Shown piece by piece: positions 20,276-56,239 of a stretch of 64,000 nt of DNA. This DNA comes from an uncultured Clostridia bacterium. GTDB lineage: Bacteria; Acidobacteriota; Aminicenantia; UBA2199. Each line of letters begins with the position of its first letter. Position 1 is the first letter of the stretch. Made by a program: the position numbers and the translations under genes. The stretch is taken from positions 4,900-68,899 of the forward strand of contig CAYRAO010000001.1 of NCBI GenBank assembly GCA_964422395.1. The letters are read 5' to 3'. The notes beneath the pieces were generated by a model. That model was not told where the DNA came from. It made no database searches and was given only the letters and a program-made list of their open reading frames with translations.

Positions 20276-20303
20276 TTGAATTTTTTGATCTTTCTGTTAG
20301 AAT
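20276..20303 (+). promoter_or_regulatory. Promoter, likely leaderless (lysE-like gene)
   Basis: TTGAAT-N16-TAGAAT with TG extension; 6 nt to ATG; no SD. Confidence 0.55.
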
Positions 20304-20309
20304 TCTAAA

Positions 20310-20990
20310 ATGTCATCAATAATCTATTTTTATCTCTCATCTTACTTTATCGGATTTCTTTTATGTATTCCAATCGGACCGGTAAATCTTGAAATTTTTA
20401 ACAGTTCACTTAAAAAACAATACATGCATGCTATCTTCGTTGCCATTGGAGCCTCGTTAGGTGACGGGACTTGGGCATTAACAGCTTTTTTCGGGATTTC
20501 ACCTTTCAGAAACGGAAATCAGAATCTTGAGTGGGTATTCTTTCTTATAACCGCCATTATAACAGGAAGTCTTGGAATATTTGCCCTTCGAGATTCAAAG
20601 CGGATAAACAAAAAAGAGGACGAACTGACGATCATAATAAAAAAAAGGAAAAGATGGGCATTTCTTAAAGGATTTACACTTGTAATAGTAAATCCTCTCG
20701 CTGTGGTATCGTGGATGATTACTCTTAAATTTCTTGAGAGTCTTGACATAAAGATTCCGCTAAGATTCAATTATGAAATTTTTTTCTTCTTCGCCGTTGC
20801 AGCAGGTGCTGTTTCGTATTTCCTCCTTATAGTTTTCATTACGAATAAAATGAAACATTTTTTCAATCCGAAAAGAACGGCACGAGTAACAAAATATGTA
20901 GGTTACATCCTTTTGGCATTCAGTATATATTTTATTTACTACACTATAAACTCTTATCTTTTCGGAATCAGCATTACGGATATTGCATAG
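20310..20990 (+). CDS. LysE/RhtB family translocator
   Basis: PIGPVNL, GASLGDG, GFTLVIVNP; about 6 TM helices. Confidence 0.85.
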   Translation: MSSIIYFYLSSYFIGFLLCIPIGPVNLEIFNSSLKKQYMHAIFVAIGASLGDGTWALTAFFGISPFRNGNQNLEWVFFLITAIITGSLGIFALRDSKRINKKEDELTIIIKKRKRWAFLKGFTLVIVNPLAVVSWMITLKFLESLDIKIPLRFNYEIFFFFAVAAGAVSYFLLIVFITNKMKHFFNPKRTARVTKYVGYILLAFSIYFIYYTINSYLFGISITDIA

Positions 20991-21011
20991 GAATACTGTT
21001 GACATCATTTG

Positions 21012-21039
21012 TTGACTGAACTCCAATTTCGGTTATAAT
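21012..21039 (+). promoter_or_regulatory. Promoter, likely leaderless (ychF)
   Basis: TTGACT-N16-TATAAT; 6 nt to ATG; no SD. Confidence 0.7.
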
Positions 21040-21045
21040 TACCTT

Positions 21046-22113
21046 ATGATATTAACAATTTACGGTTATCCCAAAACCGGTAAAACACTTTTATTTAACC
21101 TTTTGACAGATAAAAAAGAAGAATTATCAAAATTCTCGGCATCAACAAATGAATTTCATAAAGCTGTAGTAAATGTACCTGATAAAAGACTTAAAAAACT
21201 TGCCGACTTTTTCTCTACCCCCCCCGTGTATGCAAAAATCGAATATCTTGATACCGGTGCGGTCTCTTTCGGTGATTCAAAGAATTCCACATTCATTGAT
21301 CTGATTCGAAGAGCGGACGGATTAGTTCATATGGTGAGAGGATTCAAAGATGATGAGATTCTCCATCCCAACGGATCAATCGACCCTCAAAGAGATATCC
21401 GTTCCATAGAAGAAGAACTTATAACTACGGATTTTATAACGGTTGAGAAAAGAATTGAAAGAGTGGAATCCGACTTAAAGAAAATTAAAAAAAAAGAGTT
21501 GGTAAAAGAACTTGAGCTATTAAAAAAAATCGTTCCGGTTCTTGAAGGAGGATCACCTCTTCGAAATATCGATTTAACGGAAAATGAATTGCTAATGATA
21601 AGAGGTTTCAAGTTTCTTTCTATAAAACCCGTAATGAATATAATTAATTGTGATGAAAATTCATATGCCGAATATAAAAAACTTGAATCTCCTCCCGAAA
21701 ATAACACTGCAACTCTTGTTTTTGCAGGTAAAATCGAAACTGAATTACTTGAACTTGAAAAAGATGAGAGGCAGATTTTTGAAGAAGAATACGGACTAAA
21801 AAACTATAAATATATGAGAGAATCTTTCATTCAAAACAGTTATGACCTTATGAAACTTATTTCCTTTTTCACCGTCGGAAGCGATGAGACAAAAGCATGG
21901 ACAATAAACAGAGGAGATAATGCCTACCAAGCTTCGGGAAAAATTCATTCCGATATCCAGCAAGGGTTTATCAGGGGGGAAACAATAAATTGGGAAGACT
22001 TTCTCAATGCCGGAAGTTTTAATCAGGCAAAAGAAAAAGGGTTACTCCGACTTGAAGGTAAGGAATACATAGTTAAAGATGGAGATATAATCCATTTCAG
22101 ATTTAACAAATAA
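21046..22113 (+). CDS. ychF: YchF/Ola1 family ATPase (divergent)
   Basis: P-loop GYPKTGKT; C-terminal TGS domain with FFTVG, AWTI, GKIHSDIQQGFIRGE, RLEGKEYIVKDGDIIHFRFN. Confidence 0.88.
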   Translation: MILTIYGYPKTGKTLLFNLLTDKKEELSKFSASTNEFHKAVVNVPDKRLKKLADFFSTPPVYAKIEYLDTGAVSFGDSKNSTFIDLIRRADGLVHMVRGFKDDEILHPNGSIDPQRDIRSIEEELITTDFITVEKRIERVESDLKKIKKKELVKELELLKKIVPVLEGGSPLRNIDLTENELLMIRGFKFLSIKPVMNIINCDENSYAEYKKLESPPENNTATLVFAGKIETELLELEKDERQIFEEEYGLKNYKYMRESFIQNSYDLMKLISFFTVGSDETKAWTINRGDNAYQASGKIHSDIQQGFIRGETINWEDFLNAGSFNQAKEKGLLRLEGKEYIVKDGDIIHFRFNK

Positions 22114-22127
22114 GATTTTAGATTAGT

Positions 22128-23207: not shown

Positions 23208-23328
23208 GTTATTTTTTTATTGAACCATTGCACACTTGAGTTTGGAGATTATCACACAGATTTTTCCATGTCAACGTGTAAGTCTTGAAATATACCGATT
23301 CCTAACGGATGTAATTTTCGACAAAATA

Positions 23329-23357
23329 TTGACATCCTTATTATTTAGAAATAAAAT
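23329..23357 (+). promoter_or_regulatory. Promoter, likely leaderless (CDF gene)
   Basis: TTGACA-N17-TAAAAT; 6 nt to ATG; no SD. Confidence 0.7.
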
Positions 23358-23363
23358 CAAAAA

Positions 23364-24287
23364 ATGGCACGAAAGAAGTCCTCAAAATCTGTTATTTTTA
23401 CCGCTTTATTTGCAAACCTTTTTATTGCCATCATGAAACTTATAATTTCTGCAATTACACGGTCCACTGCAATGCTTGCTGAATCCATTCACTCACTTGC
23501 CGATTCCTTTAATCAAATTTTCTTATTGGTAGGGATAAAAAAGGGAGAGAAAAAAGCCGATGAACTCCACCCTTTCGGGTTTTCCGGAGAACTCTATTTC
23601 TGGTCGTTTATTGTGGCTATTGTCTTGTTTTCAGCCGGAGCGGTATTTTCCGTTTATGAAGGTATTCACAGGCTGTATCATCCTACAAAAGTCGAAAAGA
23701 TCGAATATGCTTTTATAGTTTTGGGATTGTCATTTCTTGCCGAGGGTCTTGCTTTCATTAAAGCCAACAAGAGCATAAGCATAGACAGGAAAGGCGAACC
23801 GATATTCTCTTATCTGAAAAAAACAAAGAAATCCGAACTCCTTGTGATATTTCTTGAAGATTTTGCCGCATTGATCGGACTATCGGTTGCAATAGTTGCC
23901 CTTTTACTTCAACATTTCACGGGAATTGTGATATTTGACGGCATTGCCTCAATTTTAATAGGTATAATACTTGCAGTTGTTGCATTTTTTCTTGGAAATG
24001 AGACAAGATCGTTACTTATAGGTGAAAGTGCCGATCCTGAACTTATTTATAAAGTCAACAGTGTTTTCGCAAACGAAGAGAGCATTAAAAGGGTCATTCA
24101 TCTAAGATCTCTTCAATTGGGACCGGAAGATATTCTGCTTGCGGCAAAAGTAGAATTTGATCAAAGACTTAATTCAAATCAAGTTAGCAACTTTATAAAT
24201 GCAATAGAATCCGAGATCCGTTTTCAATTCCCAATTATCAGAAAAATATATATCGAACCCGATATTTACAAAAAAAATTATCGGTGA
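23364..24287 (+). CDS. Cation diffusion facilitator (CDF) transporter
   Basis: AMLAESIHSLADSFNQ, HPFGF, EDFAALIG, C-terminal dimerisation domain ending IYIEPD. Confidence 0.92.
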   Translation: MARKKSSKSVIFTALFANLFIAIMKLIISAITRSTAMLAESIHSLADSFNQIFLLVGIKKGEKKADELHPFGFSGELYFWSFIVAIVLFSAGAVFSVYEGIHRLYHPTKVEKIEYAFIVLGLSFLAEGLAFIKANKSISIDRKGEPIFSYLKKTKKSELLVIFLEDFAALIGLSVAIVALLLQHFTGIVIFDGIASILIGIILAVVAFFLGNETRSLLIGESADPELIYKVNSVFANEESIKRVIHLRSLQLGPEDILLAAKVEFDQRLNSNQVSNFINAIESEIRFQFPIIRKIYIEPDIYKKNYR

Positions 24288-24318
24288 AATTTATTAATAA
24301 TTTTAAAAAACCGTCATG

Positions 24319-24347
24319 TTGTAACTACGGAATTCGTATGTTATATT
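24319..24347 (+). promoter_or_regulatory. Promoter, likely leaderless (nitrilase-nadE-rsmI)
   Basis: TTGTAA-N17-TATATT with TG extension; 6 nt to ATG; no SD. Confidence 0.6.
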
Positions 24348-24353
24348 TATTTT

Positions 24354-25187
24354 ATGAAAGCAAGAATTGTACAATTCTCTCCCATGTTGGGGAATGTTGA
24401 ATGGAATTTCAATTACCACGCATCCAAGATAAAAGATGCAATAAACGAAAAGATTGATCTGATAGTTTTTCCGGAACTTAGCCTTACAGGTTATCAGCTA
24501 AAGGATATAATCTATGACATACCAAAGGATAATATAGATAAAATCATAATTGATTTTATGGAATTAAGCAAAGATATAGATATTGTTATCGGTCTCCCTT
24601 TTGAAGAATCTCAGGGTATTTTTTATAATTCAGCATTATATTTTTCTGAAGGAAAAATATTACACAACCATAAAAAAGTTCAGCTTCCGAATTTTGGAAT
24701 GTTTGAAGAAAAGATGATTTTCAAAGCCGGTAATAGTTTTAAATCTTTCCGTACCGGTAATTTAACCGTCGGAATTCTGATATGCAGAGAAATTCTGTTT
24801 CCGGTTAATGCTTACCTCTACCACCTTCAAAATACGGATTTAATAATATCTGTCTCTAACAGTCCTCACAGGGGAATGGGACCTAATGGATTTGAATCTC
24901 ATAAGCTTTGGGAACGGCTTGGAGAGGTTTATTCGATACATTATCACCAAAATTTTATTTTTTGTAATAGAACAGGTTTTGAGGACGGAATAGGTTTCGG
25001 CGGAGGTTCTTTTTATGCTTCTTCCGGTAAAGGGATAGTCAATATGGGGAAATATTTTGATGAACAATGCATTAACTGTGAAATTGATGATGAAAGTATA
25101 AGGAGATCCAGAATCGGTTCAAATTATCTCAGAGATGAGAAACCTGATATAATATTAAAAGAGATGAACAGGATAATCAATGAATGA
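24354..25187 (+). CDS. Carbon-nitrogen hydrolase; glutaminase subunit of a split NAD synthetase
   Basis: Glu-Lys-Cys triad: FPELSLTGY, KVQLPNFGMFEEK, ICRE; overlaps nadE by 8 nt. Confidence 0.85.
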   Translation: MKARIVQFSPMLGNVEWNFNYHASKIKDAINEKIDLIVFPELSLTGYQLKDIIYDIPKDNIDKIIIDFMELSKDIDIVIGLPFEESQGIFYNSALYFSEGKILHNHKKVQLPNFGMFEEKMIFKAGNSFKSFRTGNLTVGILICREILFPVNAYLYHLQNTDLIISVSNSPHRGMGPNGFESHKLWERLGEVYSIHYHQNFIFCNRTGFEDGIGFGGGSFYASSGKGIVNMGKYFDEQCINCEIDDESIRRSRIGSNYLRDEKPDIILKEMNRIINE

Positions 25188-25995
25188 GATCAATCTTGAT
25201 GTTACGACAGACATAATTGTTAAATTTATATACGATTCGATAAAGAAGAATGGATTTAAGAATGGTGTAATAGGAGTTTCAGGAGGAATTGATTCCGCTT
25301 TGGTTTTAGCGTTAACCGTTAAAGCTATAGGGAAAGAAAATACATTCGCAATCTTAATGCCTTTTAGAACATCATCTCCCGACAGCCTCTCGGACGGGAA
25401 ATATTTATGTGACAAATTTGATGTCGATTATGAGGTTATTGACATAACACCTTCAATTGATCCATATTTTGAAAAATTCCCTACGGATAACAAAACTCTT
25501 ATTGGGAACAAATGTGCACGAGAAAGGATGAGCATCCTTTATGATTTTTCAGGAAGAAAAAATGCATTGGTTGTCGGAACTTCGAATAAAACGGAGATTC
25601 TGATAGGATACTCGACACTTTACGGTGATTCCGCTGCAGCATTCTTACCTATCGGTGATCTATATAAATCCGAAGTATTTCTGATGGCAGAGCATTTGGG
25701 AATACCCGAAAGGATAATAAATAAAAAACCTTCGGCCGATCTTTGGAAAAATCAAACCGATGAGGAAGAGATCGGATTCACTTATGAAACTTTGGACAAA
25801 ATATTATATATGATGATTGACCAAAGAGCATCTGATAAAGAGTTAAAAGTTTCGGGATTCAGTTCCAAAGACATTATTAGAATAAAAAAAATGATATCGT
25901 CGTCACACTTTAAAAGGACTATGCCTCCCATAACAAAAATTCATTATAGAACAGTTGGAATTGACTTTCGTTATCCGAGAGATTGGTTAAAATAG
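25180..25995 (+). CDS. nadE: NAD+ synthetase
   Basis: GVSGGIDSA, ARERMSILYD, GTSNKTE, GYSTLYGD, PIGDLYKSEV, KPSADLW. Confidence 0.96.
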   Translation: MNEINLDVTTDIIVKFIYDSIKKNGFKNGVIGVSGGIDSALVLALTVKAIGKENTFAILMPFRTSSPDSLSDGKYLCDKFDVDYEVIDITPSIDPYFEKFPTDNKTLIGNKCARERMSILYDFSGRKNALVVGTSNKTEILIGYSTLYGDSAAAFLPIGDLYKSEVFLMAEHLGIPERIINKKPSADLWKNQTDEEEIGFTYETLDKILYMMIDQRASDKELKVSGFSSKDIIRIKKMISSSHFKRTMPPITKIHYRTVGIDFRYPRDWLK

Positions 25996-26002
25996 TATTT
26001 CA

Positions 26003-26785
26003 ATGATCCTATATATTGTTCCTGTTCCGATCGGCAATCTAAGAGATATAACATTAAGAGCAATAGACATACTTAAATCAGTTGATTTTATTATTGTTGA
26101 AGATACGAGACATTCTCTGAAATTATTAAATAAGCTTGAAATAAAGAAACGGTTATACAGTTATTACAAACCTAAAGAAGAGGAAAAATCTGCCAAAATA
26201 ATAGAACTATTAAAGTCCGGTAACGGAGCATTGATCACCGATTCCGGAACTCCGGTAATTTCCGATCCGGGTCATATATTGATCACCAAAGCTATAAAAT
26301 CAGGTATTGAAATAATATCTCTTCCCGGACCAACCGCATTTGTACCGGCTATAACCAACTCAGGTATCAGATCGGATATGTTTCTTTTTGCGGGTTTTTC
26401 ACCAAGAAAGGGAGGAAAATTAAGAAACTATCTTAAGGCACTTTCAGAGTTGAAATGTACTATTATATTTTACGAATCACCGAAAAGAGTGAAAAATTTC
26501 CTTAATACCGCTTATGAAATATTTGGTGACAGAACTTTTTCAATATCAAAGGAATTGACAAAAATAAATGAGAAAATTTGCAGAGGCAACCTTAAAAATT
26601 ATATTTCCACGTTGGGAGAGATAAAACTTCAGGGAGAATTTGTTATTGTGATTGAAGGAAGTAAAGGGGGAAAAAATGGAGAGAGTCCCGATCTTAACTC
26701 CGTAGAAGACATATACGATTATTTTAAAGAAAAATATAACATATCTCGAAATAAAATCAAAAAGATCTTAATGAGAAGGAAATAA
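26003..26785 (+). CDS. rsmI: 16S rRNA (cytidine1402-2'-O)-methyltransferase
   Basis: VPVPIGNLRDITLRA, EDTR, DSGTPVISDPG, FYESPKR, KELTKINE. Confidence 0.95.
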   Translation: MILYIVPVPIGNLRDITLRAIDILKSVDFIIVEDTRHSLKLLNKLEIKKRLYSYYKPKEEEKSAKIIELLKSGNGALITDSGTPVISDPGHILITKAIKSGIEIISLPGPTAFVPAITNSGIRSDMFLFAGFSPRKGGKLRNYLKALSELKCTIIFYESPKRVKNFLNTAYEIFGDRTFSISKELTKINEKICRGNLKNYISTLGEIKLQGEFVIVIEGSKGGKNGESPDLNSVEDIYDYFKEKYNISRNKIKKILMRRK

Positions 26786-26789
26786 AAGA

Positions 26790-28328
26790 TTATAACTTGA
26801 AAATATTGGCTGACCTGTAACTTAAAGCTTCCTGAATATCCGATACTCCTATGTTCTCACTATTTTTTAGGTCGGCAATGGTTCTTGCTATCTTCAATAT
26901 TTTAAAATAACTTCTGGTACTGAGATCAAGTTTCTCCACTGCCGTTTTGAGTATCTTTTCGGTATTTGAGTCGATCAAACAGAACTTTTTAATCTCCCTG
27001 TTTCCCATCTGTCCATTTGCAAAAATATTTTTTTTCATTTTTTCGAAACGACTAATCTGAATATCCCTTGCAGCCATAACCCTTTGTCGAATTATCTCGG
27101 AACTATCCGAAAGGATATTTGATGTTATTTCATCAAGTTTAACTTTATTTACTTCAATTTGCAGATCAATTCTGTCAAGGAGTGGTTTGGATATCCGTGA
27201 ATAATATCTCCTTTTTTGTGCTTCGCTGCATCCCTCAAATTCAGAAGATTTAATTCCCATTGAATCTTCACAGGTATTCATAGCTGCAAGTAGCATGAAT
27301 CTTGCCGGAAATGTGTAAGTCGAAAGAGAACGGGATATTGATATTTCTCCATCCTCAAGAGGCTGTCTAAGAACCTCAAGTGCTGTCTTTTTAAAATGGG
27401 GAAGTTCATCAAGAAATAGAACTCCGTTATGTGCTAAGGATATCTCACCCGGAATGGGAAATCGTCCTCCTCCACTCATTCCGACATCTGAGATTGTATG
27501 GTGAGGGGACCTGTGGGGTCTATCCGATATTAGTCCCATTTTATTATTTAGAAGTCCCGCAGAGCTGTAAATTAGAGATGTTTCCAATATCTCCGCCTCG
27601 GTCATAGTAGGCAAGATTGAAGGTAAAGCCTTTGCCATCATTGATTTTCCCGAACCGGGAGGACCTATCATTAATAAATTATGAGAACCGGCTGCGGCAA
27701 TTTCCAAAGCTCTTTTCGCAAGATATTGACCTTTGACCTCATTAAAATCGGTATTATGAAACTTAGTATTAATTTTAGCTCGATTTTTAGTTGGACAAAA
27801 CCGTTCAATTTGGTCTTTATTGAATATGAATTTTCCGATTTCGGAAAGATCTTTTAGTGCAAATACTTCAATTCCTTTAACATGTGATGCCTCATTTCCA
27901 TTCTCGTAAGGAACAACAATTCCTTTGAATCCATGCTGCTTTGCTGCAATAGAATAGTTAAGAACACCTTTTACGGGTTTTAGTTTACCTTCCAGATTTA
28001 ATTCGCCGAAAAACAGATAATCTTTAAATTGATCGCTATCAACGGAGTTTTTTTTCATTATTATTCCCATGGCAATAGGGAGGTCAAGTGAAGAACCCTC
28101 TTTTTTAACATCCGCCGGAGATAGATTTATTACGGTCTTTACTCCTACCGGATACTCGAAACCGGAATTCTTTATTGCAAACTTTATCCTCTCTTTGCTC
28201 TCGTTAACTGCATTATCCGGTAACCCGACAATCGTTATCCCCGGAATTCCTCTTGAAAACCCAACTTCAATTTCGGCCATAATTACAATTAGACCATTTA
28301 AAATCGCAGAATTAATTTTTGCTATCAT
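26790..28328 (-). CDS. comM: YifB/ComM family Mg-chelatase-like AAA+ ATPase
   Basis: VGLPDNAVNESKERI, GPPGSGKSM, PHHTIS, GEISLAHNGVLFLDE, KIARTIADL. Confidence 0.93.
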   Translation of the reverse strand: MIAKINSAILNGLIVIMAEIEVGFSRGIPGITIVGLPDNAVNESKERIKFAIKNSGFEYPVGVKTVINLSPADVKKEGSSLDLPIAMGIIMKKNSVDSDQFKDYLFFGELNLEGKLKPVKGVLNYSIAAKQHGFKGIVVPYENGNEASHVKGIEVFALKDLSEIGKFIFNKDQIERFCPTKNRAKINTKFHNTDFNEVKGQYLAKRALEIAAAGSHNLLMIGPPGSGKSMMAKALPSILPTMTEAEILETSLIYSSAGLLNNKMGLISDRPHRSPHHTISDVGMSGGGRFPIPGEISLAHNGVLFLDELPHFKKTALEVLRQPLEDGEISISRSLSTYTFPARFMLLAAMNTCEDSMGIKSSEFEGCSEAQKRRYYSRISKPLLDRIDLQIEVNKVKLDEITSNILSDSSEIIRQRVMAARDIQISRFEKMKKNIFANGQMGNREIKKFCLIDSNTEKILKTAVEKLDLSTRSYFKILKIARTIADLKNSENIGVSDIQEALSYRSANIFKL

Positions 28329-28434
28329 CTCACTTCCCTAAAAACTTGTTGAATATATTTAACTCAATATATTTAATATTATATGCATAAATATGGATTA
28401 TTTCAACTTAAAAAAAGAATATATTGATTTTATA

Positions 28435-29802
28435 CTATCTTGGGATCAGCAATCTTTTACCCGGTCTAATCAGATTGGATCTTAGTTTATTTACTCTTTT
28501 TATTTTTCTTACCGAAGTACGGAATTTTCTTGCTATTGAATAAAGGCTATCCCCTTTTCTCACTCTGTACCATCCTGCAAAATATCTGCTCTTTGGAGGT
28601 AATCTTTTTAATTGTTCCAAAACAGACTCGTCGGATCCGATAGGAATTCTCAATTCATACTCTTTTTTATTAAAAGGGGTAAAGTCCCTAACTATCTCCG
28701 GATTAAGCTTTTTCAACTCCGAATATGGTCGGTTAAGCAACGCAGAAACACTTTTTAAGCTAACCGGTGATATGATTTTTACAATTTTGGAATTATTGTA
28801 AAGTTTATCAGGTTCATTAACAATAAATCCATATTTTTCGGGCGATTTTGCAATTAAAAGCGAAGCTATAAAAGCCGGAACATAATTCCTTGTTTCACGT
28901 CTTAGATATCTGCTTTTGGCAAGTCTGTAAAAATTTCTACTTCCTACCCTCTTAATAGCTCTTGATACTTTCCCCGGACCACCATTATAACTGGCAAGAG
29001 CAAGATACCAATCATCAAATTTTTCATATAAATATTTTAAATATTTTGCCGCTGCATATGCAGATTTTTCAGGATCCTTTCTCTCATCCAATATCCAATC
29101 CACTCTCAATCCGAACAATCGTGCAGTCATTTTTATAAACTGCCAAATTCCCATAGCCCGTGCTCTTGAATATGCGTTTGTTCTAAATCCGCTTTCAATA
29201 ATAGGCAGATATGCCAAATCTTCGGGAATACCCGCTTCATTAAAAATTACTTTATACCTTTTGATATAAATTCCCGATCTGTCAAGAGCATTCTGAATGC
29301 TCTTATGGCGAACCGTCTGAAATGCTTTTATAAAAGATACGACCTTATCATTAATCTCAATTGGGATGGAGAATGTAGGTTCCGATATAACCGCAAGTTG
29401 TTTAATCTTCTTTATCTCTTTTTGTGAAGGTTTAAACAATCTCGTATTGACAACTTCGTCAATAAGAGCTTTTTCCTTTTCGGTTGAGATATTATTATTG
29501 TATTCAAGTTGATTGAGCTCTATGGAAGATATCTTTATTACATACTCATTTACAATTCTACTGAATTCCGGATTATCCGAAACAGAATTAAGCAATATAT
29601 TTATAGCTTTATCAAAATAGTAACCCGCCGCATCCGACCGTCCTTCATTTATTAGTGCTTTACCTTTTAAAAAATTCGACTCTGCTTTTCTTATTATGGG
29701 ATTTCGATAATTTAACTTATACCCTTTCCGAAATAGACTGTTCGAGCATCCTGCACTCAAAACAAGAACCATAACAAATAAAATAATTCTATTTTTCCAC
29801 AT
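28435..29802 (-). CDS. MltD-like lytic murein transglycosylase with LysM, lipoprotein
   Basis: Lipobox LSAGC; SLT motifs IIESGF, AMGIWQF, ALASYNGG, ETRNYVP; C-terminal LysM (YRVRKGDSLYSIARKF). Confidence 0.92.
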   Translation of the reverse strand: MWKNRIILFVMVLVLSAGCSNSLFRKGYKLNYRNPIIRKAESNFLKGKALINEGRSDAAGYYFDKAINILLNSVSDNPEFSRIVNEYVIKISSIELNQLEYNNNISTEKEKALIDEVVNTRLFKPSQKEIKKIKQLAVISEPTFSIPIEINDKVVSFIKAFQTVRHKSIQNALDRSGIYIKRYKVIFNEAGIPEDLAYLPIIESGFRTNAYSRARAMGIWQFIKMTARLFGLRVDWILDERKDPEKSAYAAAKYLKYLYEKFDDWYLALASYNGGPGKVSRAIKRVGSRNFYRLAKSRYLRRETRNYVPAFIASLLIAKSPEKYGFIVNEPDKLYNNSKIVKIISPVSLKSVSALLNRPYSELKKLNPEIVRDFTPFNKKEYELRIPIGSDESVLEQLKRLPPKSRYFAGWYRVRKGDSLYSIARKFRTSVRKIKRVNKLRSNLIRPGKRLLIPR

Positions 29803-30799
29803 CTAATATGAGATTTATCTTCTCTACTCCTTTAGTCAGTTCAATATCAATAGTTTTAAGGATGTTCGAATCACTATCCTTGATATCTATTATAAAACTT
29901 TCAGCAGATTGTATTTTTTTTATAATCGTAAGACGTGAACTATCACCTTGCAAAGAATCTAACAAATCATAGCTCTTTTTATCTTCGGCACCCTGTTTCC
30001 TTTCCTCTTCTTGGGGAATAACTTCCAACTCATCCTCTAAAACTATTATATCTTCTTCAACTTCACGAAGGCTGACATCTTGGATAATATCATGCTTTTC
30101 ATCATCATCGGTTTTTATCCTTTTAACAGGAATATCATCTTTTGAAATTATCTCTTTTTCGGTATTGATATCAAAACTAATTTCAGGACTAACCCCACTC
30201 TTGGTATCAAGAAAGTCAATTTCTCTTTTTATTTCATCAAGAGTTAATGCGGATATCTCACGGAGTGTCTCCACCACACCTCTTCCCTCTGTGGAAACAG
30301 CCTCAAAATAAGGATAATTTTCCGGATTTAATATCCTGTTCATTTTTTCAATAGACATGATGTTTTTTAAATCACGTTTATTGTATTGAAAAACCAAAGG
30401 GACGGAACTCAATTCATCACCCTGTTCAGCCAGGTTAATCCTAAGATTTTCTAAACTTTCTATGTTCGATTCTTCCATTGCTTCTTGAGAATCTGCAACA
30501 AATACTACTCCGTCTGCTCCTTTCAACACCATTTTTCTTGTAGAATCATAGAATATCTGACCAGGGACAGTGTATAGTTGAAATTTTGTAAAATACCCTT
30601 TTATAAGTCCCACATTTATGGGAAGAAGATCAAAAAAGAGAGTACGTTCAATATCGGTTTCCACACTAACAAGTTCTCCCCTCGCTTGTGGATTTGTAAC
30701 GGAATAAATATACTGCAGATTTGTTGTCTTTCCACTTAGACCGGTTCCATAGTAAACTATTTTTGCCGTAACTTCCTTTGAAGAGTAATTAATAAACAT
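29789..30799 (-). CDS. MglA-family small GTPase with acidic C-terminal extension
   Basis: KIVYYGTGLSGKTTNL, ERTLFFD, LYTVPGQ, DGVVFVADSQ, YNKRDL; about 140 extra C-terminal residues. Confidence 0.9.
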   Translation of the reverse strand: MFINYSSKEVTAKIVYYGTGLSGKTTNLQYIYSVTNPQARGELVSVETDIERTLFFDLLPINVGLIKGYFTKFQLYTVPGQIFYDSTRKMVLKGADGVVFVADSQEAMEESNIESLENLRINLAEQGDELSSVPLVFQYNKRDLKNIMSIEKMNRILNPENYPYFEAVSTEGRGVVETLREISALTLDEIKREIDFLDTKSGVSPEISFDINTEKEIISKDDIPVKRIKTDDDEKHDIIQDVSLREVEEDIIVLEDELEVIPQEEERKQGAEDKKSYDLLDSLQGDSSRLTIIKKIQSAESFIIDIKDSDSNILKTIDIELTKGVEKINLILDVEK

Positions 30800-30860
30800 T
30801 TATATCTACCAATAGTTGAATTTTCTCACCAATTAAGGATGAAGTCAACATTTTTGATAT

Positions 30861-32078
30861 TTACGTATAATTGTTGAGATACTCCGGATAGTTATCTTTA
30901 AGCCAACCAAAATAGTTTTTTACGGCAATCTCGTGTTTCTCCCACCATCCGGTTACGATCCCGTCGTTATTGAGTTTATGAAGATTCTTTTTATCCTCAT
31001 CTTTAAGATAAGTCGGAAGACGGAACTGATATTCACTTCCCGAAAGAGGAAAAAAATGGTGAAGATGGATTTTAACTCTATATCTTTTGGACAATTTCCG
31101 AATAAAACTTAATGTTTTTTCTCTCTCATCTTCCGATTCATCCGGATATCCGATAATAAAATCAAGATTTACTTTGAATCCATACGAATTTGCTATCTCA
31201 ATATCGGATTCTACATCATAAGTAGAGTGACCCCTATGAAGTTCTTTTAACCTCTCATCGGAACCACTTTGAGCACCAAGCGTAATCCATTTATTTGTTA
31301 CATTTTTTTTTAGAATCTTAACCAATTCCTTATCCAACGTCCCCGGTCTTATTTCAGAAGGGAATATCCCATATTCAAAAAAATTAAAACCAAATGAAGC
31401 AACTGTCTCCAACAGTTCGGAAATACTTGAATGGTCAGGTTTACCGGGAATTTTTGATCCGTATTCCAAGGCGGAAGGAGAAATAAAGGTTACCCTTTTA
31501 AAACTTTTTTCCTTAAGACCTTTTAAAAAGGTAACTATTGAATTCATGGAACGGAAAGAATAGTCGGCGGTTCCGGTTTGACAATACTTGCAATTCCATA
31601 AGCATCCTCTGAAGATTTCAAGAGGAGGAACCATTTTGAAATATTTTGAAAAGGGTAAGTATTTATTAAGATCTGTTTTAACTTTTCGGGAATATGTTTT
31701 TCCTCCGTCTTTAATATTTCCCGAGATCAGATCGTTTCCGAATTGTTTAAAAGATTCTTCTCCAAATCCTTTAAACAGAATATTAACACCGATCTTTAAA
31801 GGTAATTCTGTACTTCCGTCGATATGAGAACCTCCGGCTGCAATCAATACATTTTTGTCCTTTAGGGAATATATCTCTTCAGCAATAATCGGTAGATGAG
31901 GTGTCATAAATGAGTACACTACTATATCACCCTCTTTGCATGCAACCCGACCCTCTGAAATAACAATATCAAAATAACTATCTATACCGGCTTTTTCCCA
32001 TACGTTAAGAAGTACCGGAAAAGTAAATCTATTAAACGGAAATACTCTGAATATTACTCTCTTCCTTTTCATGAACAT
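30861..32078 (-). CDS. B12-binding radical SAM protein (TIGR04013/MJ1487-like); start possibly at 32072
   Basis: N-terminal cobalamin-binding region (YSF, AAGGSH); RGCLWNCKYC; GAQSGS. Confidence 0.8.
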   Translation of the reverse strand: MFMKRKRVIFRVFPFNRFTFPVLLNVWEKAGIDSYFDIVISEGRVACKEGDIVVYSFMTPHLPIIAEEIYSLKDKNVLIAAGGSHIDGSTELPLKIGVNILFKGFGEESFKQFGNDLISGNIKDGGKTYSRKVKTDLNKYLPFSKYFKMVPPLEIFRGCLWNCKYCQTGTADYSFRSMNSIVTFLKGLKEKSFKRVTFISPSALEYGSKIPGKPDHSSISELLETVASFGFNFFEYGIFPSEIRPGTLDKELVKILKKNVTNKWITLGAQSGSDERLKELHRGHSTYDVESDIEIANSYGFKVNLDFIIGYPDESEDEREKTLSFIRKLSKRYRVKIHLHHFFPLSGSEYQFRLPTYLKDEDKKNLHKLNNDGIVTGWWEKHEIAVKNYFGWLKDNYPEYLNNYT

Positions 32079-32080
32079 TG

Positions 32081-32109
32081 ATTATAAACCGAACTTACAC
32101 TCCGTTCAA
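32081..32109 (-). promoter_or_regulatory. Promoter, near-leaderless (B12 radical SAM gene)
   Basis: TTGAAC-N17-TATAAT; 8 nt to the second ATG (32072). Confidence 0.65.
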
Positions 32110-32190
32110 TCCGAACATTTGAGTATCCAAATGATACATAAAACTCAGTAATACTCTCTCTTTAAAACAAGAAATTTATCGCATATGATT

Positions 32191-32219
32191 TTGACTGTTA
32201 TATAGCACAGTGCTATAAT
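32191..32219 (+). promoter_or_regulatory. Promoter, likely leaderless, containing a palindromic operator
   Basis: TTGACT-N17-TATAAT (TG extended), 7 nt to ATG; TATAGCAC-A-GTGCTATA palindrome at 32201-32217. Confidence 0.75.
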
Positions 32220-32226
32220 TTTTCCA

Positions 32227-42016: not shown

Positions 42017-42033
42017 CAACCATAGGAGAAACT

Positions 42034-43185: not shown

Positions 43186-43186
43186 T

Positions 43187-45483: not shown

Positions 45484-46437
45484 TCAAGCTTGTTCAAGTA
45501 AAGCCAAAGTCAGTATAGGTAAAATCAAATCGGAATCACCGCCGGTACACAAAACCGAAATCTCATTCGAAGAATTCATATCTTCCATACCTCTTTTTAC
45601 AGAACAATCTTCAATTTCACCTAAAGTACAAATGGAAAACTTTTTAATTCGGAATCCACTTTCCATGCAAAATCCAATAGAATTAGTTAAGATATTCAAA
45701 CCGTTCTTATCCATATTGATTGAAATATAGATTCCGTTATTAATAAGTTTGGACATTATGGAAGAATACATAATAAAATCTCTGTCAAGAAGATTACCGA
45801 ATATTCCTCCGTCAAAATTTTTGTGATAATGCAGCTTGTTAGTTCCTATGGTCGAGTGAAGTATAACGGGGATGTTTAATCTGTATCCGTTTGCAATAAT
45901 ACTGTATTTGTTGAATTTAAATTTTGCACCTTCAAGATATTCCCCTACCGCTTCTCCTGCACCCGTACCCTTTCTATTACCTTCTTTAAATGCTATGTTA
46001 AGAAAAAGACCGGTCTCCTCAGCTATTCCGCAACCGGCAAACCTCCCTTTTTCAGTATTTCTATAATCTATAAAATTCCCCGAAAGAGAAAGTTCAAAAT
46101 CTTTAATAAGAAAATCTTCATCAACGGAAATAGCAGATATCCATCCACGATGCATAAGATCAATAATAAGAGGGGACAGCCCTTTATCAATAACTTCCGA
46201 TCCAATAGAGAAAAATATGGGATATCCGCTTTTTCGTGCAAATCGCATCCTTTTTACAAGTTTTTGGAAATCATTTTTATCAGTTGATTTATAACTTGAC
46301 CCGATAATAGATTTCAACCCGAAACCGGAAGAGTAAGATTTGAAAATTTTCTCTTTATCAAACTCTTTTTTCTGTTTTTCAAGAGTAAGATTTTCATCTT
46401 TAATTTTCTTTAAGAGTGGAAATTTTGAATATGTCAC
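45484..46437 (-). CDS. Deoxyhypusine synthase-like fold protein (degenerate)
   Basis: GLSPLIIDLMHRGWI, DFELSLSG, EETG, GEAVG, RLNIPVILHSTIG match the bacterial DHS-like family, but many conserved motifs are altered. Confidence 0.6.
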   Translation of the reverse strand: MTYSKFPLLKKIKDENLTLEKQKKEFDKEKIFKSYSSGFGLKSIIGSSYKSTDKNDFQKLVKRMRFARKSGYPIFFSIGSEVIDKGLSPLIIDLMHRGWISAISVDEDFLIKDFELSLSGNFIDYRNTEKGRFAGCGIAEETGLFLNIAFKEGNRKGTGAGEAVGEYLEGAKFKFNKYSIIANGYRLNIPVILHSTIGTNKLHYHKNFDGGIFGNLLDRDFIMYSSIMSKLINNGIYISINMDKNGLNILTNSIGFCMESGFRIKKFSICTLGEIEDCSVKRGMEDMNSSNEISVLCTGGDSDLILPILTLALLEQA

Positions 46438-46979
46438 TTTGATTTATTTACCATACGTGAATACTTTATAATATATTCCACTGCACTATAAATGGTTAAA
46501 AAAACCGCTATGTAAAGAATGTACGTCCCTATCTTATGGATACTTTCAGGGTTCGGAAGTTTTCTATAGATAATAAATATTGAAATAGCTACTATTTGAA
46601 AAAGTGTTTTACCTTTTGCAATACCGGAGGCGGAAAAAGAATACTCATGCATATAAAAATAGAATCTGAAAGCTGTCATAAATATTTCTCTTATAATTAT
46701 TAATGAAGCCGCCCATGTTTCTATTTCTCCAAGAGCAACAAGAGCAACTAATGCCGCTGATATTAAAAGTTTATCGGCAATCGGATCAAGGAATTTACCC
46801 AGTTCGGTAACCTGATCATATTTTCTTGCTATATAACCGTCAATTGCATCCGAGAATGAGGCAAAAAGGAATACGGCAAAAGCTATGATTTCCTTATTTT
46901 CCATTTTCGTAAGGAGAATTACAATAAATATCGGGACAAGCAATATCCTCAACAGAGTTATTATGTTCGCTTTGCTCAT
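46434..46979 (-). CDS. pgsA: CDP-diacylglycerol-glycerol-3-phosphate 3-phosphatidyltransferase
   Basis: ANIITLLR, DAIDGYIARK...GKFLDPIADK. Confidence 0.93.
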   Translation of the reverse strand: MSKANIITLLRILLVPIFIVILLTKMENKEIIAFAVFLFASFSDAIDGYIARKYDQVTELGKFLDPIADKLLISAALVALVALGEIETWAASLIIIREIFMTAFRFYFYMHEYSFSASGIAKGKTLFQIVAISIFIIYRKLPNPESIHKIGTYILYIAVFLTIYSAVEYIIKYSRMVNKSK

Positions 46980-46984
46980 ATAGT

Positions 46985-47013
46985 ATTTTATAGGTTAATT
47001 TTAAAAAAATCAA
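46985..47013 (-). promoter_or_regulatory. Promoter, likely leaderless (pgsA)
   Basis: TTGATT-N17-TAAAAT; 5 nt to ATG; no SD. Confidence 0.6.
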
Positions 47014-47084
47014 TTTTCCCGAACATTTCTCCAATAGTTATATTTAAATGTGTACAAAAATCAAAAATAATATAACTTAGAGTA

Positions 47085-49161: not shown

Positions 49162-49342
49162 ATTAACTGCCTTGAAACGGTCATTTTAAATTTATACTTC
49201 CGGAAATCCAAGACAACAAATTCACATTTAATACACATACTTAAAACGGATTCTATCATAATGATAAAGATAAATGAAATATTTTCTTTTTATTAATGGC
49301 AAATATTATGGGAGAAATATTACTAATTTATACATTCTTAAA

Positions 49343-49371
49343 TTGACATTCACTGGAAATAAAGTTATAAA
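49343..49371 (+). promoter_or_regulatory. Promoter of purF with very short leader
   Basis: TTGACA-N17-TATAAA; 10 nt to ATG 49382; no SD. Confidence 0.7.
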
Positions 49372-49381
49372 CAGTATCAAC

Positions 49382-50842
49382 ATGTGCGGAGTAATAGGAA
49401 TATTCGATAACGATGAAGTTGTAACGAAATTGTATGGTGCCATGCTTACAATTCAACACAGAGGGCAGGATTCAGCCGGAATTTTGACTTACGACGGGAG
49501 GTTTCATTTAAAAAAAGGAAATGGTCTTGTCGATGAGATTTTTGATCAGAGAAATATTTCCAGATTAACCGGAAATGTCGGACTGGGTCATACAAGGTAT
49601 CCTACAATCGGAGAAGGATCGGTAGAGGATTCACAGCCGTTCTGGGTCAATACCCCTTTTGGTATTGCCGGTACACACAATGGAAACGTAACCAATTTTG
49701 AAGAGTTAAAAGATGATTTGACAAAAAAATCTTTCAGAGTAATAAATTCAAATTCGGATATGGAAGTAATACTAAACGTTTTCGCAGAATACCTCGAACG
49801 TCTTAAAATAAAAGATATTACTCCCGAAATAATTTTTAAATCTATCAGACACATATATAAGAAAATAAGAGGTAGTTATTCTGTTGTATTTTACATTGCA
49901 GGAAAAGGCATGGTCGGATTTAGAGACCCTTACGGATTAAGACCGCTCCTTTTCGGTACCAACAGAGATAAACTTGTCCCATCTTATGCATTTGCTTCGG
50001 AAAGTGTTTCTCTTGATGTTATGGGATTCAATGAAATTGAAGATCTGGAACCCGGTTCCGCAATTTTTATTGATAACAATAAAAGAGTGTTTAAGAAACG
50101 CATTTTAAAGAAACCTCACAGACCTTGTATATTCGAATACATATACTTCGCAAGACCGGATTCTTATCTTAATAAAATTAATGTTTATCAATCCAGAGTT
50201 GAGCTCGGAAAAGCTATCTCAAAAAAAGTTAAAGGTCTTGATATTGATGTCGTAGTCCCTATTCCCGACTCTTCAAGGGCAGCCGCAATTGAAATAGCAA
50301 GGATTCTAAAGCTTAAGTATAGAGAAGGTCTTGTAAAAAACAGATATATAGGCAGAACATTTATTATGCCCGGAAACGAGCAGAGAAAGAAATCAATCAA
50401 CAATAAACTTAATCCGATAGGAGAAGTTTTTCAAAATAAAAATGTTCTTCTCGTAGATGACTCGATTGTAAGAGGCAACACATCAAGATCAATTGTTCAA
50501 ATGGTCAGAAATGCAGGAGCAAAGAAAGTATTCTTCCTCTCATATTCTTCACCTCTTACAAACCCATGTGTTTACGGAATAGATATGCAAAGGAAACAGG
50601 AATTTATTGCTACAAACGCAACTCCCGACCAAATTGCAAATAAAATAGGTGCCGACAAGGTAATTTACCAAGATCTTGATGATATGGAAAGAGCGGTAAG
50701 GGTTCAAAATAAAGATATCAAATCATTTTGTAAGGCTTGTTTCACCGGTATTTATCCAACGGGTGACGTTTCAAGTGAAATGTTAAGAAAGATTGAGAAT
50801 GAGAGAGATACATCAAAAAATAATATGGGGGAAGTGAATTAG
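49382..50842 (+). CDS. purF: Amidophosphoribosyltransferase
   Basis: N-terminal nucleophile MCGVIG (true start; the track's 49274 start would bury Cys1), QHRGQDSAG, GHTRY, HNG, VDDSIVRGNTS. Confidence 0.97.
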   Translation: MCGVIGIFDNDEVVTKLYGAMLTIQHRGQDSAGILTYDGRFHLKKGNGLVDEIFDQRNISRLTGNVGLGHTRYPTIGEGSVEDSQPFWVNTPFGIAGTHNGNVTNFEELKDDLTKKSFRVINSNSDMEVILNVFAEYLERLKIKDITPEIIFKSIRHIYKKIRGSYSVVFYIAGKGMVGFRDPYGLRPLLFGTNRDKLVPSYAFASESVSLDVMGFNEIEDLEPGSAIFIDNNKRVFKKRILKKPHRPCIFEYIYFARPDSYLNKINVYQSRVELGKAISKKVKGLDIDVVVPIPDSSRAAAIEIARILKLKYREGLVKNRYIGRTFIMPGNEQRKKSINNKLNPIGEVFQNKNVLLVDDSIVRGNTSRSIVQMVRNAGAKKVFFLSYSSPLTNPCVYGIDMQRKQEFIATNATPDQIANKIGADKVIYQDLDDMERAVRVQNKDIKSFCKACFTGIYPTGDVSSEMLRKIENERDTSKNNMGEVN

Positions 50843-50849
50843 TTTTTTC

Positions 50850-51977: not shown

Positions 51978-52052
51978 CTTTAAAAAAATACCAAGCAATT
52001 TTTCTCGCTATAATTTTTCTTATATTTTTTCTAACTTTTTTGTAAAAATATT

Positions 52053-54222: not shown

Positions 54223-54223
54223 A

Positions 54224-55528
54224 ATGAAACGACATTCCATTGCTATTTTATTGGTACTGGTGGTCTTAACCGGATGTGTTACAAAAAAAATAAAATATGA
54301 TGTAGATATCCCTGAAATGGACAATAAGGGGTATAGTGATGAATTTTTCAAGGAAGGCTGGGAACAGTTGAAAATCGGGAAAATTGATCTGGCTTATGAA
54401 AAATTCAAGGAAAGCAACTCAAAAGATTACAAGCTTTACAATGCGTTCGGTTATGTATATTTATTAAAAAACAAACCTTCCAACGCCTTAAGAAATTTTA
54501 AGAAATCTCTAAAACTTAAAGAAGACAATGTTCAAGCGGAATACGGACTTGCAATGATAAGAGAGATCGGAAATGATATTAAGGGTGCATTTAAAATCTA
54601 TTCCGAAATCATTTTAAAATATCCCGATAGTGAATGGGCAAAAAAAAAATACAAATTGATAAAAGACAGGGAAACTAAAATACATCTGGAAAATGCAGAA
54701 AAATATTTAATGGCAAACAAAGATGAAAACTATATAAAAAGTCTTAAACTTGCTTCCGAATATTCACCTGAAAAAACCGAATTGAAGGTAAAAATAGGTG
54801 AATATTATTACAACAAGAACAATTTTGAAAAAGCTTCAGAATATTTTGAATATGCTCTTGAAAGCAATCCTGAAGATATTGAGATAATGAGAAAACTTGC
54901 AGGTTCTTATGAAAACGGAGAAAATATTAACTCCGCAATTATTATTTATAAAAGACTATTAAACCTGCTTCCGGAGGACCTTTCAATAACAAACAAAATT
55001 AACGACCTTAAAATCAAATTTCAGGAAATTGATTTACCTGTTAAATTCAAAGATATTTTCTTCAAAGATAACATTAACAGAGAAGAACTTGCCGCACTAA
55101 TAGGACATTATTTCAAGAAATATCTATTTTTTGAAGGACAACCAGTAATTTTGACGGACATTAAAGGATCATTCGCAAAAGATCATATAATAAAGGTATG
55201 CTCTTCAGGAATTATTAAGGGGAGTCCCAATCACAGATTCAATCGTTTCAAATTAATAACCCGTGCATTTTTCTCAACGGTGGCTACTTCTTTACTAAAA
55301 TACCTAAAAGAGAAAAGCGGCTTAGAATTATATTTTACTCCATTAGTTAACAAACCGGAGCCGACTGATATTTCACCTCTTCACAAAGATTATAAAAAAA
55401 TTATGTTTCTGTTGAATTCACAGATCCTTTATCTTGACGACGAAGGTAATTTCAATCCGACCGAACAGATATCTCCTTCCGATGTTATGATATCACTAAG
55501 AAAAATTCTTAAAAGCATACCGGAATAA
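54224..55528 (+). CDS. TPR-repeat lipoprotein with C-terminal S-layer homology (SLH)-like repeats
   Basis: Lipobox VLTGC; multiple TPRs; SLH-like FKD..INREELAA, LTDI..GIIKG..F..ITR, PTD..F.P..IS; GAGGAG SD supports start at 54224. Confidence 0.72.
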   Translation: MKRHSIAILLVLVVLTGCVTKKIKYDVDIPEMDNKGYSDEFFKEGWEQLKIGKIDLAYEKFKESNSKDYKLYNAFGYVYLLKNKPSNALRNFKKSLKLKEDNVQAEYGLAMIREIGNDIKGAFKIYSEIILKYPDSEWAKKKYKLIKDRETKIHLENAEKYLMANKDENYIKSLKLASEYSPEKTELKVKIGEYYYNKNNFEKASEYFEYALESNPEDIEIMRKLAGSYENGENINSAIIIYKRLLNLLPEDLSITNKINDLKIKFQEIDLPVKFKDIFFKDNINREELAALIGHYFKKYLFFEGQPVILTDIKGSFAKDHIIKVCSSGIIKGSPNHRFNRFKLITRAFFSTVATSLLKYLKEKSGLELYFTPLVNKPEPTDISPLHKDYKKIMFLLNSQILYLDDEGNFNPTEQISPSDVMISLRKILKSIPE

Positions 55529-55564
55529 TTTTAAGAATATTTTGGGAGAATCGGATACTCTAAA

Positions 55565-55593
55565 TTTACTTTATCCTTATTAAATGATACAAT
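55565..55593 (+). promoter_or_regulatory. Promoter, likely leaderless (dNK-panBCD)
   Basis: TTTACT-N17-TACAAT with TG extension; 7 nt to GTG; no SD. Confidence 0.55.
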
Positions 55594-55600
55594 TTTCCCC

Positions 55601-56239
55601 GTGGAAAAGTTGAATAACATAGCAATAGACGGCCTTATCAGAACCGGAAAAACAGAACTTTCAAGAATTATTGCAAAGGAATTTGATGCAAAACTTATCA
55701 TTGACGACAAAAAAAATCCTTTTATTGATGAGTTCTACGAATCGTTATCCGATAATGATAGCAGTTTGGGTTTAAAAAATCAGTTAATCTTTTTACTTAA
55801 CAGATATACTCAACAAATGAGTTTAAAACAGAAGGGACTTTTCCATAAAGGTAGTGTCAGTAATTACCTTTTTTTTCGTGAAGCAATTTACTCACACGTT
55901 GTCCTCAACGATGAAGATATTGAAATATATAAGAGAATTTATAGTATCTTATCTGAAAAAATTATAGTTCCCGACCTGGTAGTATATCTTCAAGTATCAT
56001 TTTCAGAGATGATAAACAGGATTAAGAAATCCGCCAACAATCATGAGAAAAGTGTTCCTCAAGAGTATTGGAGAGAACTTTTTGAAGCTTACAATTACTA
56101 CTTTTTCAACTACAGAACATCACCTTTGCTTGTGGTAAACGTTGAAAAAATAGATATGAATAATGAAAACGATATATCAAATTTAATAAACGAGATAAGA
56201 AATCATGAAAAGGGGATAAAGTATTATGCTCCACTCTAA
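55601..56239 (+). CDS. Deoxynucleoside kinase family protein
   Basis: IAIDGLIRTGKT, PDLVVYLQ; upstream of panB as is common. Confidence 0.8.
   Translation: MEKLNNIAIDGLIRTGKTELSRIIAKEFDAKLIIDDKKNPFIDEFYESLSDNDSSLGLKNQLIFLLNRYTQQMSLKQKGLFHKGSVSNYLFFREAIYSHVVLNDEDIEIYKRIYSILSEKIIVPDLVVYLQVSFSEMINRIKKSANNHEKSVPQEYWRELFEAYNYYFFNYRTSPLLVVNVEKIDMNNENDISNLINEIRNHEKGIKYYAPL

Follow-up and report, generated by a model that had tools for sequence, protein, structure and literature searches.

Promoters abutting start codons point to leaderless initiation beside Shine-Dalgarno initiation in an AT-rich Aminicenantes contig

In a 64,000 nt stretch of an AT-rich Aminicenantes contig (CAYRAO010000001.1, positions 4,900 to 68,899; referred to below as the window), nine genes that are each the first of their operon start directly behind a predicted promoter of the housekeeping sigma-70/sigma-A type. 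The putative −10 element ends 5–10 nt, mostly 6 nt, before the start codon, and no Shine-Dalgarno (SD) sequence precedes these starts. The nine sites are probably functional promoters that give rise to mRNAs with leaders of 0–4 nt, which are translated without an SD. The remaining first genes and the internal genes are predicted to have ordinary leaders, many of them with an SD of the GGAG type. Such a dual regime, with promoter-abutting, SD-less starts beside leadered genes that carry an SD, had been proposed in an earlier note made from the letters of this DNA. It stands, and comparative data back promoter function at the nine genes. To judge from the sequence, the lineage likely runs both initiation modes.

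Promoter-to-Start Geometry at Nine Genes

The GC content of the window is 32–36% (34% is quoted as background below). Together with its flanks on the same contig (loci L035 and L036, 16.7 kb) about 81 kb of the genome were covered. Two contigs (99.6 kb and 223.6 kb) also carry the window sequence, and the sole public run that contains it is a DNA run described as "epibiont metagenome". We read the 70 nt upstream of each long open reading frame (ORF), scored promoters at all offsets and re-extracted the nine sites at their exact coordinates. A full promoter match was defined by at least 9 of 12 hexamer positions and an end 5–10 nt before the start, an SD by GGAG, GAGG or AGGA at positions −18 to −4.

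All nine geometries were found as the earlier note had described them, with a TTGACA-like −35 element, a spacer of 16–17 nt, a TATAAT-like −10 element and 5–10 nt to an ATG or GTG. They agree with the sigma-70 type (TTGACA-like, 16–18 nt, TATAAT-like) at 9–11 of the 12 positions, and their distances to the start are 5, 6, 6, 6, 6, 7, 7, 8 and 10 nt. The absence of an SD was likewise confirmed, since GGAG, GAGG and AGGA are missing from −18 to −4 in 9/9 cases.

On the plus strand (given here as −35/spacer/−10), the lysE-like gene has TTGAAT/16/TGtTAGAAT at 20276–20303, 6 nt before its ATG at 20310 (feature 20276–20312), and ychF has TTGACT/16/TATAAT (11/12) at 21012–21039, also 6 nt before the ATG at 21046 (feature 21012–21048). 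The cation-diffusion-facilitator (CDF) gene follows with TTGACA/17/TAAAAT (11/12) at 23329–23357 and 6 nt to the ATG at 23364 (feature 23329–23366). The operon of a CN-hydrolase gene and nadE (NAD synthase) has TTGTAA/17/TGtTATATT at 24319–24347 and again 6 nt to the ATG at 24354 (feature 24319–24356). For the operon of a PHP-domain gene and a glycosyltransferase gene, TTGACT/17/TGcTATAAT (11/12) at 32191–32219 ends 7 nt before the ATG at 32227 (feature 32191–32229). At purF, TTGACA/17/TATAAA at 49343–49371 ends 10 nt before the ATG at 49382 (feature 49343–49384); this site matches at 11/12 positions, but is missed by a standard promoter scan as its −10 element lacks the T at position 6. The operon of a deoxynucleoside kinase gene (dNK) with panB, panC and panD has TTTACT/17/TGaTACAAT at 55565–55593, 7 nt before a GTG at 55601 (feature 55565–55603). 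Two sites lie on the minus strand. The pgsA promoter, TTGATT/17/TAAAAT at 47013–46985, ends 5 nt before the ATG at 46979 (feature 46977–47013). At the radical-SAM gene, TTGAAC/17/TATAAT at 32109–32081 (feature 32070–32109) lies 2 nt from a first ATG (32078) and 8 nt from a second (32072). The distance of 8 nt to the second ATG, as the earlier note had counted it, is the correct one, since the second ATG is the start conserved in relatives and the first is not conserved. The gene names given in that note agree with Pfam for LysE, YchF, CDF (cation efflux), CN-hydrolase with NAD synthase, radical-SAM and PHP, and also for PgsA, PurF and the deoxynucleoside kinase followed by panB/C/D.

An extended −10 element (TGn) is present at lysE, CN-hydrolase, PHP and dNK, and the first, second and last of these have the three weakest −35 elements. 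The TGn is kept in every orthologue, and its combination with a weak −35 is the kind of compensation to be expected of a sigma-70-type promoter that is functional. A scan with Rfam returned three tRNAs only, and thus no riboswitch or leader RNA in conflict with the nine sites.

On sigma-70 promoters, as is well established, transcription usually begins some 7 nt downstream of the −10 element. At the nine genes it would therefore begin on the first base (A or G) of the start codon or 1–4 nt upstream of it: a distance of 5–8 nt would keep the start-codon purine in the usual start window, and 9–10 nt would leave a leader of 1–4 nt (2–4 nt expected for purF). With the promoter abutting the start there would be no room for an SD in the mRNA, so that a leaderless route of translation would be required, in which the ribosome with the initiator tRNA recognises a 5′-terminal AUG or GUG. 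From the geometry and its conservation we infer that the promoters are active, at which base transcription starts, and that translation is leaderless.

Positional Excess over Chance

Full matches that end 5–10 nt before the start were found at 9/25 operon-first genes, compared to 0.62 ± 0.75 in dinucleotide shuffles (P<0.0005; the sixth base of the −10 was allowed to be A). When windows that are likewise six wide were placed at other offsets of these upstream regions, the count averaged 1.75 and never exceeded 5. When all genes were counted, 8/55 had a match of at least 9/12 at 5–10 nt versus 1.02 ± 1.02, and the number of eight was never reached in 1000 dinucleotide shuffles. The −10 element alone, at a minimum of 5/6 matches, was observed 8 times versus 1.8 times after shuffling. 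Among the 11/12 sites within 20–40 kb, five of six are upstream of genes, three of those at 6–7 nt. The same preference is seen when strong sites near gene 5′ ends are collected from the window and 20 Aminicenantes loci: 24/66 end 5–10 nt from the start of a long ORF, and only 1 ends at 11–15 nt.

Conservation of the Hexamers in Related Genomes

Orthologous loci were gathered for all nine genes from other Aminicenantes metagenome-assembled genomes (MAGs). The close relatives are MAGs labelled Candidatus Aminicenantes or Acidobacteriota, with 66–85% identity for YchF and 74–85% for Era. As the nadE query of genome contigs returned unrelated taxa only, the CDF and CN-hydrolase orthologues were taken from the PHP query (L027).

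Over the nine families, comprising 39 promoters, pairwise identity is 92% for the −35 element and 96% for the −10 element, but 56% for the spacer (50% for its core) and 55% for the stretch between −10 and start. The −10 element ends 5 nt before the start in 4 of the 39 promoters, 6 nt in 14, 7 nt in 5, 8 nt in 8, 9 nt in 4 and 10 nt in 4, with a mode of 6 nt. In all nine families the intervening bases vary, but the hexamers and their spacing from the start do not change in kind. Since the spacers are only about 50% identical, the orthologous upstream regions have not diverged too recently to be informative, and these identities indicate that selection acts on the hexamers more than on the bases around them.

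All five lysE orthologues (5/5) have TTGAAx/16-17/TGnTAnAAT and exactly 6 nt to the start. For ychF, TATAAT lies 5–9 nt from the ATG in seven relatives, and the six of them with a flank that reaches the −35 keep TTGACx/TTGCCT with differing spacers. L027, L028 and L026, whose CDF proteins are 82–60% identical to that of the window, keep TTGACx/17/TAAAAT with 6–8 nt to an ATG or GTG. The CN-hydrolase gene of L027 has identical hexamers, TGn and 6 nt behind a different spacer, and its PHP gene keeps TTGACT/17/TGgTATAAT with 9 nt. The radical-SAM promoter is kept in L008, L002/L027 and L004 with 8–9 nt, and the pgsA promoter in L029–L032 as TTGATT/17/TAAAAT with 5–6 nt, despite a different upstream neighbour gene. 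Six relatives keep TTGACx/17/TATAAA before purF (6–10 nt), and four keep TTTACx/17/TGaTATAAT (TGaTATACT in L019) before dNK, with 8 nt and a GTG start.

The segment from CDF to the radical-SAM gene (23300–32150, about 8.8 kb) is inverted versus UBA647 and others (L027, L002, L004 and L006 were compared). In these relatives the radical-SAM gene faces the gene for an IspA-NUDIX fusion and CDF faces PHP. Both breakpoints of the inversion lie between back-to-back promoters, so that each gene kept its own promoter.

Over larger distances the mode of initiation is seen to change. The radical-SAM gene of the distant loci L005 and L006 has a longer leader (24 nt or more) with an SD, and in L025, L026 and L028 (42–47% identity) the leader of the PHP gene is at least 24 nt long and contains AGAGGA or AAGGAG. 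Loci L037–L042 (positions 3910–4003) come from an Aminicenantes lineage of 67% GC, whose PgsA is 62% identical to that of the window; next to the window this makes the GC range within the class very wide. In this lineage TTGCTT/17/TACAAT lies 14 nt upstream of the pgsA ATG with GGAG in between, i.e., a very short leader with an SD. As read from these upstream regions, the initiation mode is not fixed per gene and switches within the Aminicenantes class. Leaderless-type families in addition to the nine were found in relatives, e.g., a 194-aa P-loop protein (L024, L025) and a metallophosphoesterase (L031).

Assignment of the Start Codons

Eight of the nine genes start with ATG and one (dNK) with GTG, which is conserved in five orthologues. 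Comparison with homologues fixes the start codons of all nine. The Pfam domain begins at residue 2 in CN-hydrolase (aligned to profile position 1), at residue 3 in PgsA (aligned to profile position 3), at residue 4 in YchF, at residue 7 in dNK and at residue 12 in CDF (Cation_efflux); the match of LysE begins at residue 18. With the GTPase domain of YchF starting at residue 4, the ychF start cannot be further downstream. The N-termini of the orthologues align from residue 1, and an upstream extension of the ORFs is impossible, since no further start codon lies between each start and the preceding stop. For purF the longest-ORF ATG at 49274 was rejected in favour of the ATG at 49382, which opens the conserved Met-Cys-Gly-Val. 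The Cys after this Met is the catalytic N-terminal nucleophile of PurF. The upstream extension of the window purF ORF by 36 codons is broken by stops in relatives.

The database gene caller agrees on 6/9 starts and differs for purF, PHP and radical-SAM. Its purF (522 aa) is 36 codons too long (49274–49381) and its radical-SAM gene, which starts at the non-conserved first ATG, is 2 codons too long (32073–32078). The called PHP gene (545 aa) is 16 codons too short (32227–32274) and starts at Met17, a residue that is Leu in L027.

Frequency of the Geometry

The earlier note had put the leaderless fraction at roughly half of the transcription units. This estimate is too high: about 9/19 units are reached only inside 20276–55603 by a hand tally, whereas the whole window has 9/25 (36%) and the window with its flanks about 9/31 (29%). 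In terms of genes, 9 of about 57 in the window (16%) are of the leaderless type. We estimate from these counts a share of about a quarter to a third of the transcription units of the contig, and a lower share in relatives.

For the relatives we used a crude ORF-based gene set from the window and 23 AT-rich Aminicenantes loci. The geometry was present at 43/159 first genes versus 6/110 internal genes (Fisher P = 4e-6), and three of the six internal cases are pgsA, whose gap is 36–39 nt. In the window TANNNT at 5–8 nt was found at 0/33 internal genes. Families that are mostly of the leaderless type number 8/28 in the window and 6/55 outside it (11–29%), and 27/55 of the non-window families are mostly SD-led.

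Core SDs were detected at 18/33 internal genes and 8–9/25 first genes of the window. The statement in the earlier note that other genes have clear GGAG-type SDs holds for the sulfatases, etfB, a TlpA-like gene and an ABC ATPase; two of the examples it named, M29 and KamA, were not found by Pfam among the scanned genes. The transcription units of the flank (L035/L036) have leaders of roughly 20–46 nt, mostly with an SD. Several leadered genes, namely a TetR gene, the IspA-NUDIX gene, miaA and a CorC-like gene, have no core SD, and for this reason SD-independent initiation on leadered mRNAs probably occurs in this organism too.

The dense occurrence of the leaderless-type genes in 20–56 kb led us to consider a regional cluster or regulon. 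We rejected it, as the pgsA geometry is kept elsewhere and the promoters are kept through the inversion. The property looks gene-specific and the apparent clustering post hoc.

Weighing of Alternative Explanations

A number of observations speak against leaderless initiation at the nine genes, and they have to be considered together with the explanations that they would favour. The bare TANNNT test, which the earlier note had proposed, did not reach significance at 34% GC when we ran it on the operon-first genes of the window (9 sites at 5–10 nt versus 5.6 expected, P about 0.1). Promoter-like matches as such are also no commoner than in shuffled sequence (87 versus 83.5 ± 10 and 96 versus 82.1 ± 8.4). 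Both results would be expected if the matches were chance products of the AT-rich intergenic background. TANNNT is, however, too weak a test in such a background, where the −35 element and cross-species conservation are needed. The nine full matches at the offset compared to 0.62 expected, hexamers that are conserved to 92–96%, versus about 50–56% for the bases beside them, in orthologues with protein identities as low as 60%, and the specificity of the geometry for first genes (P = 4e-6) make chance an extremely improbable explanation; we rejected it on this positional excess, conservation and specificity. Very improbable, too, are mis-assigned starts, with translation beginning at a downstream codon and the annotated coding sequence in front of it serving as leader. 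The gene caller did pick other starts for PHP (Met17), purF and radical-SAM, but in five genes the Pfam domain begins 2–12 residues from the proposed start, PurF must start with Met-Cys, the orthologues share their N-termini from residue 1 onwards, L027 has a Leu in place of Met17 of PHP, and no SD precedes any of the downstream candidates that we looked at.

A different objection accepts the promoters as real, but assigns most of the translated mRNA to upstream promoters or read-through, with leaderless transcripts as a minor species. Initiation would then take place at an internal AUG without an SD, aided by A/U-rich unstructured sequence in the manner of S1-type or Bacteroidetes-like non-SD initiation. 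In line with this, the promoters of ychF (behind lysE), CN-hydrolase (behind CDF) and dNK (behind a TPR gene) were not found to be separated from the preceding gene by a terminator-like site, so that read-through transcripts with long leaders may coexist, and the leadered TetR, IspA-NUDIX, miaA and CorC-like genes do without a core SD. An A/U-rich enhancer would, on the other hand, not conserve TTGACx at 16–17 nt from TAnAAT, nor TGn, amid drifting sequence, and the divergent lysE, CDF, radical-SAM and PHP genes have no co-oriented gene upstream of them. The motif is absent before internal genes (TANNNT at 5–8 nt in 0/33), which is the opposite of the pattern of group B genomes (PMC6028130). 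We therefore regard this explanation as unlikely. The other adverse points concern expression, leader length and spread. A search of public RNA runs with ychF and the thrS-HU region of the window and with lysE-ychF of L002 gave no match. At purF (10 nt) and some orthologues (8–10 nt) the predicted leaders would be 1–4 nt and not zero. GTG, as at dNK, is a poor leaderless start in E. coli, though it is tolerated in mycobacteria. The spread is uneven: leaderless-type sites are absent from the initial 20 kb of the window as well as from the 16.7 kb flank (L035, L036; about six units). Functional promoters with leaders of 0–4 nt remain our preferred explanation for the nine genes.

Relation to Known Leaderless Systems

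The novelty that the earlier note had seen, namely that leaderless initiation is less documented in AT-rich diderms, was framed too generously. GeneMarkS-2 assigns 1028/4769 bacteria to a leaderless group C with 25–50% of operons leaderless and a Pribnow box 6–8 nt from the start (PMC6028130, Lomsadze et al. 2018). In addition, TA-led (leaderless) genes were predicted at 9.7–19.4% in 3/3 Acidobacteria genomes (PMC3160421, Zheng et al. 2011), a work which also found that orthologues switch between SD-led and leaderless with phylogenetic distance. SD use in classes of the Acidobacteriota ranges from 32 to 61% (PMC10783764). Our data thus describe a new lineage for a known phenomenon, with low GC and a strong −35 or an extended −10 as modest peculiarities. 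A literature search that paired "leaderless" with "Aminicenantes" found no paper.

In Actinobacteria, leaderless promoters are mostly a bare TANNNT. The nine promoters differ from these by a TTGACA-like −35 that is both strong and conserved, or else by an extended −10. They resemble group C, e.g., Mycobacterium tuberculosis and Deinococcus deserti, in the Pribnow box near the starts of first genes and the SDs of internal and remaining first genes. At the scale of the window, a promoter at about −10 is present in a sizeable share of first genes and SDs are present elsewhere, as in that group; the share of 36%, valid for the window scale only, falls in its range of 25–50% of operons (PMC6028130). 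Known members of group C are mostly high-GC Actinobacteria and Deinococcus-Thermus, unlike the Aminicenantes contig with its 34% GC.

The genomes of Zheng et al. belong to the same broad phylum, and the criterion applied to them, a TA-like signal some 10 bp before the start, is the one used here; the 16% of genes in the window compares with 9.7–19.4% there (PMC3160421). The switching of modes between orthologues is common to that set and to the radical-SAM and PHP genes here, and it fits the published turnover by phylogenetic distance (PMC3160421) that a gene is of the leaderless type in one lineage of the Aminicenantes and SD-led in a second. That set consists of cultured Acidobacteria, with the class Aminicenantia outside the sample (PMC3160421). 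With the present data, leaderless initiation is predicted also for a class of the Acidobacteriota that is AT-rich and uncultured. A relation to the non-SD initiation of the Bacteroidetes type (group B) was also considered, since an AT-rich, SD-less sequence just before the start is common to both. In group B every gene, also inside an operon, is preceded by the motif, which cannot be a promoter (PMC6028130). We rejected this assignment, as the motif is confined to first genes here, is paired with a −35 at 16–17 nt, and internal genes have GGAG-type SDs.

The known picture of bacterial translation initiation is unchanged by these data. For annotation, a standard caller misplaced 3/9 starts, and MAGs of the clade need a leaderless-aware model.

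Classical leaderless mRNAs of the E. coli type are phage lambda cI from PRM and tetR of Tn1721, with +1 on the A of the AUG. The nine genes share with them a consensus sigma-70 promoter and, as predicted, this position of +1 and a 5′-terminal AUG start. Lambda cI and tetR are isolated cases in an SD-dominated genome, whereas here the layout recurs at the housekeeping genes ychF, pgsA, purF, nadE and panBCD. One might go further and see AT-rich Aminicenantes as unusual leaderless users, in which housekeeping genes have no initiation signal other than full E. coli-like or TGn-extended promoters, orthologues flip over short distances (radical-SAM and PHP, and pgsA in the 67% GC relative), and a second route to near-leaderless mRNAs may lead via tRNA 3′ processing (thrS and tilS, with SD-less leaders of 8–9 nt). 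We consider this extended view rather doubtful. If it were true, the clade would offer a natural system in which to study the switching of genes between initiation modes, with compact units of promoter and gene that would come through rearrangements undivided.

Other Genes of the Window

Two genes on the minus strand served as leadered controls. The gene with its ATG at 20206 has TTGAAA/17/TATAAT (20207–20255) and a 20-nt leader with AAGGAGG, a layout that recurs in relatives. A small-GTPase-like gene (ATG 30799) has TTGACT/17/TGaGAAAAT (30800–30848) and a leader of about 20 nt, conserved in five relatives.

The promoter of the IspA-NUDIX fusion gene (23208–23280, minus strand) has a 15-nt spacer and an extended −10 (TTGACA/15/TGtGATAAT). 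It is kept in the close relatives L008 and L002, but not in others, and is followed by a leader of about 40 nt with no recognisable SD. The TetR-family gene (3820–4458) has TTGACA/17/TATATT (11/12) in its promoter region at 4459–4530 on the minus strand, also with no SD. Its 29-nt leader holds a perfect inverted repeat, AATTGACCGA-ACGG-TCGGTCAATT, which is likely an operator.

Two starts closely follow tRNA genes. On the minus strand (region 17659–17741) the ATG of thrS (17659) lies 8 nt past the 3′ end of tRNA-Val (17668–17741) with no SD (...GCCTATTTATTAA ATG), and processing of the tRNA 3′ end could leave a near-leaderless thrS mRNA. On the plus strand (region 61441–61535), the TilS ORF of 470 aa, as called by the longest-ORF rule and the database caller, begins inside a tRNA with a CAT anticodon (61451–61523). 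The true tilS start is likely the ATG at 61533, 9 nt after the tRNA and with no SD; the PP-loop domain would then begin at residue 24. The promoter of this tRNA, TTGATT/17/TATAAT, ends 9 nt before the mature 5′ end. The CAU tRNA beside tilS could be the tRNA-Ile2 substrate, Met and Ile2 not being distinguishable. In a metagenome scan with TilS the only relative was 29% identical and had no tRNA adjacent.

Three genes between 42034 and 46437 gave no Pfam match: those for proteins of 383 aa (42034–43185), 728 aa (43187–45373) and 317 aa (45484–46437), the last of which is translationally coupled to pgsA. All three are conserved beside pgsA or genes for a GldA/F/G-like ABC transporter in L029–L032.

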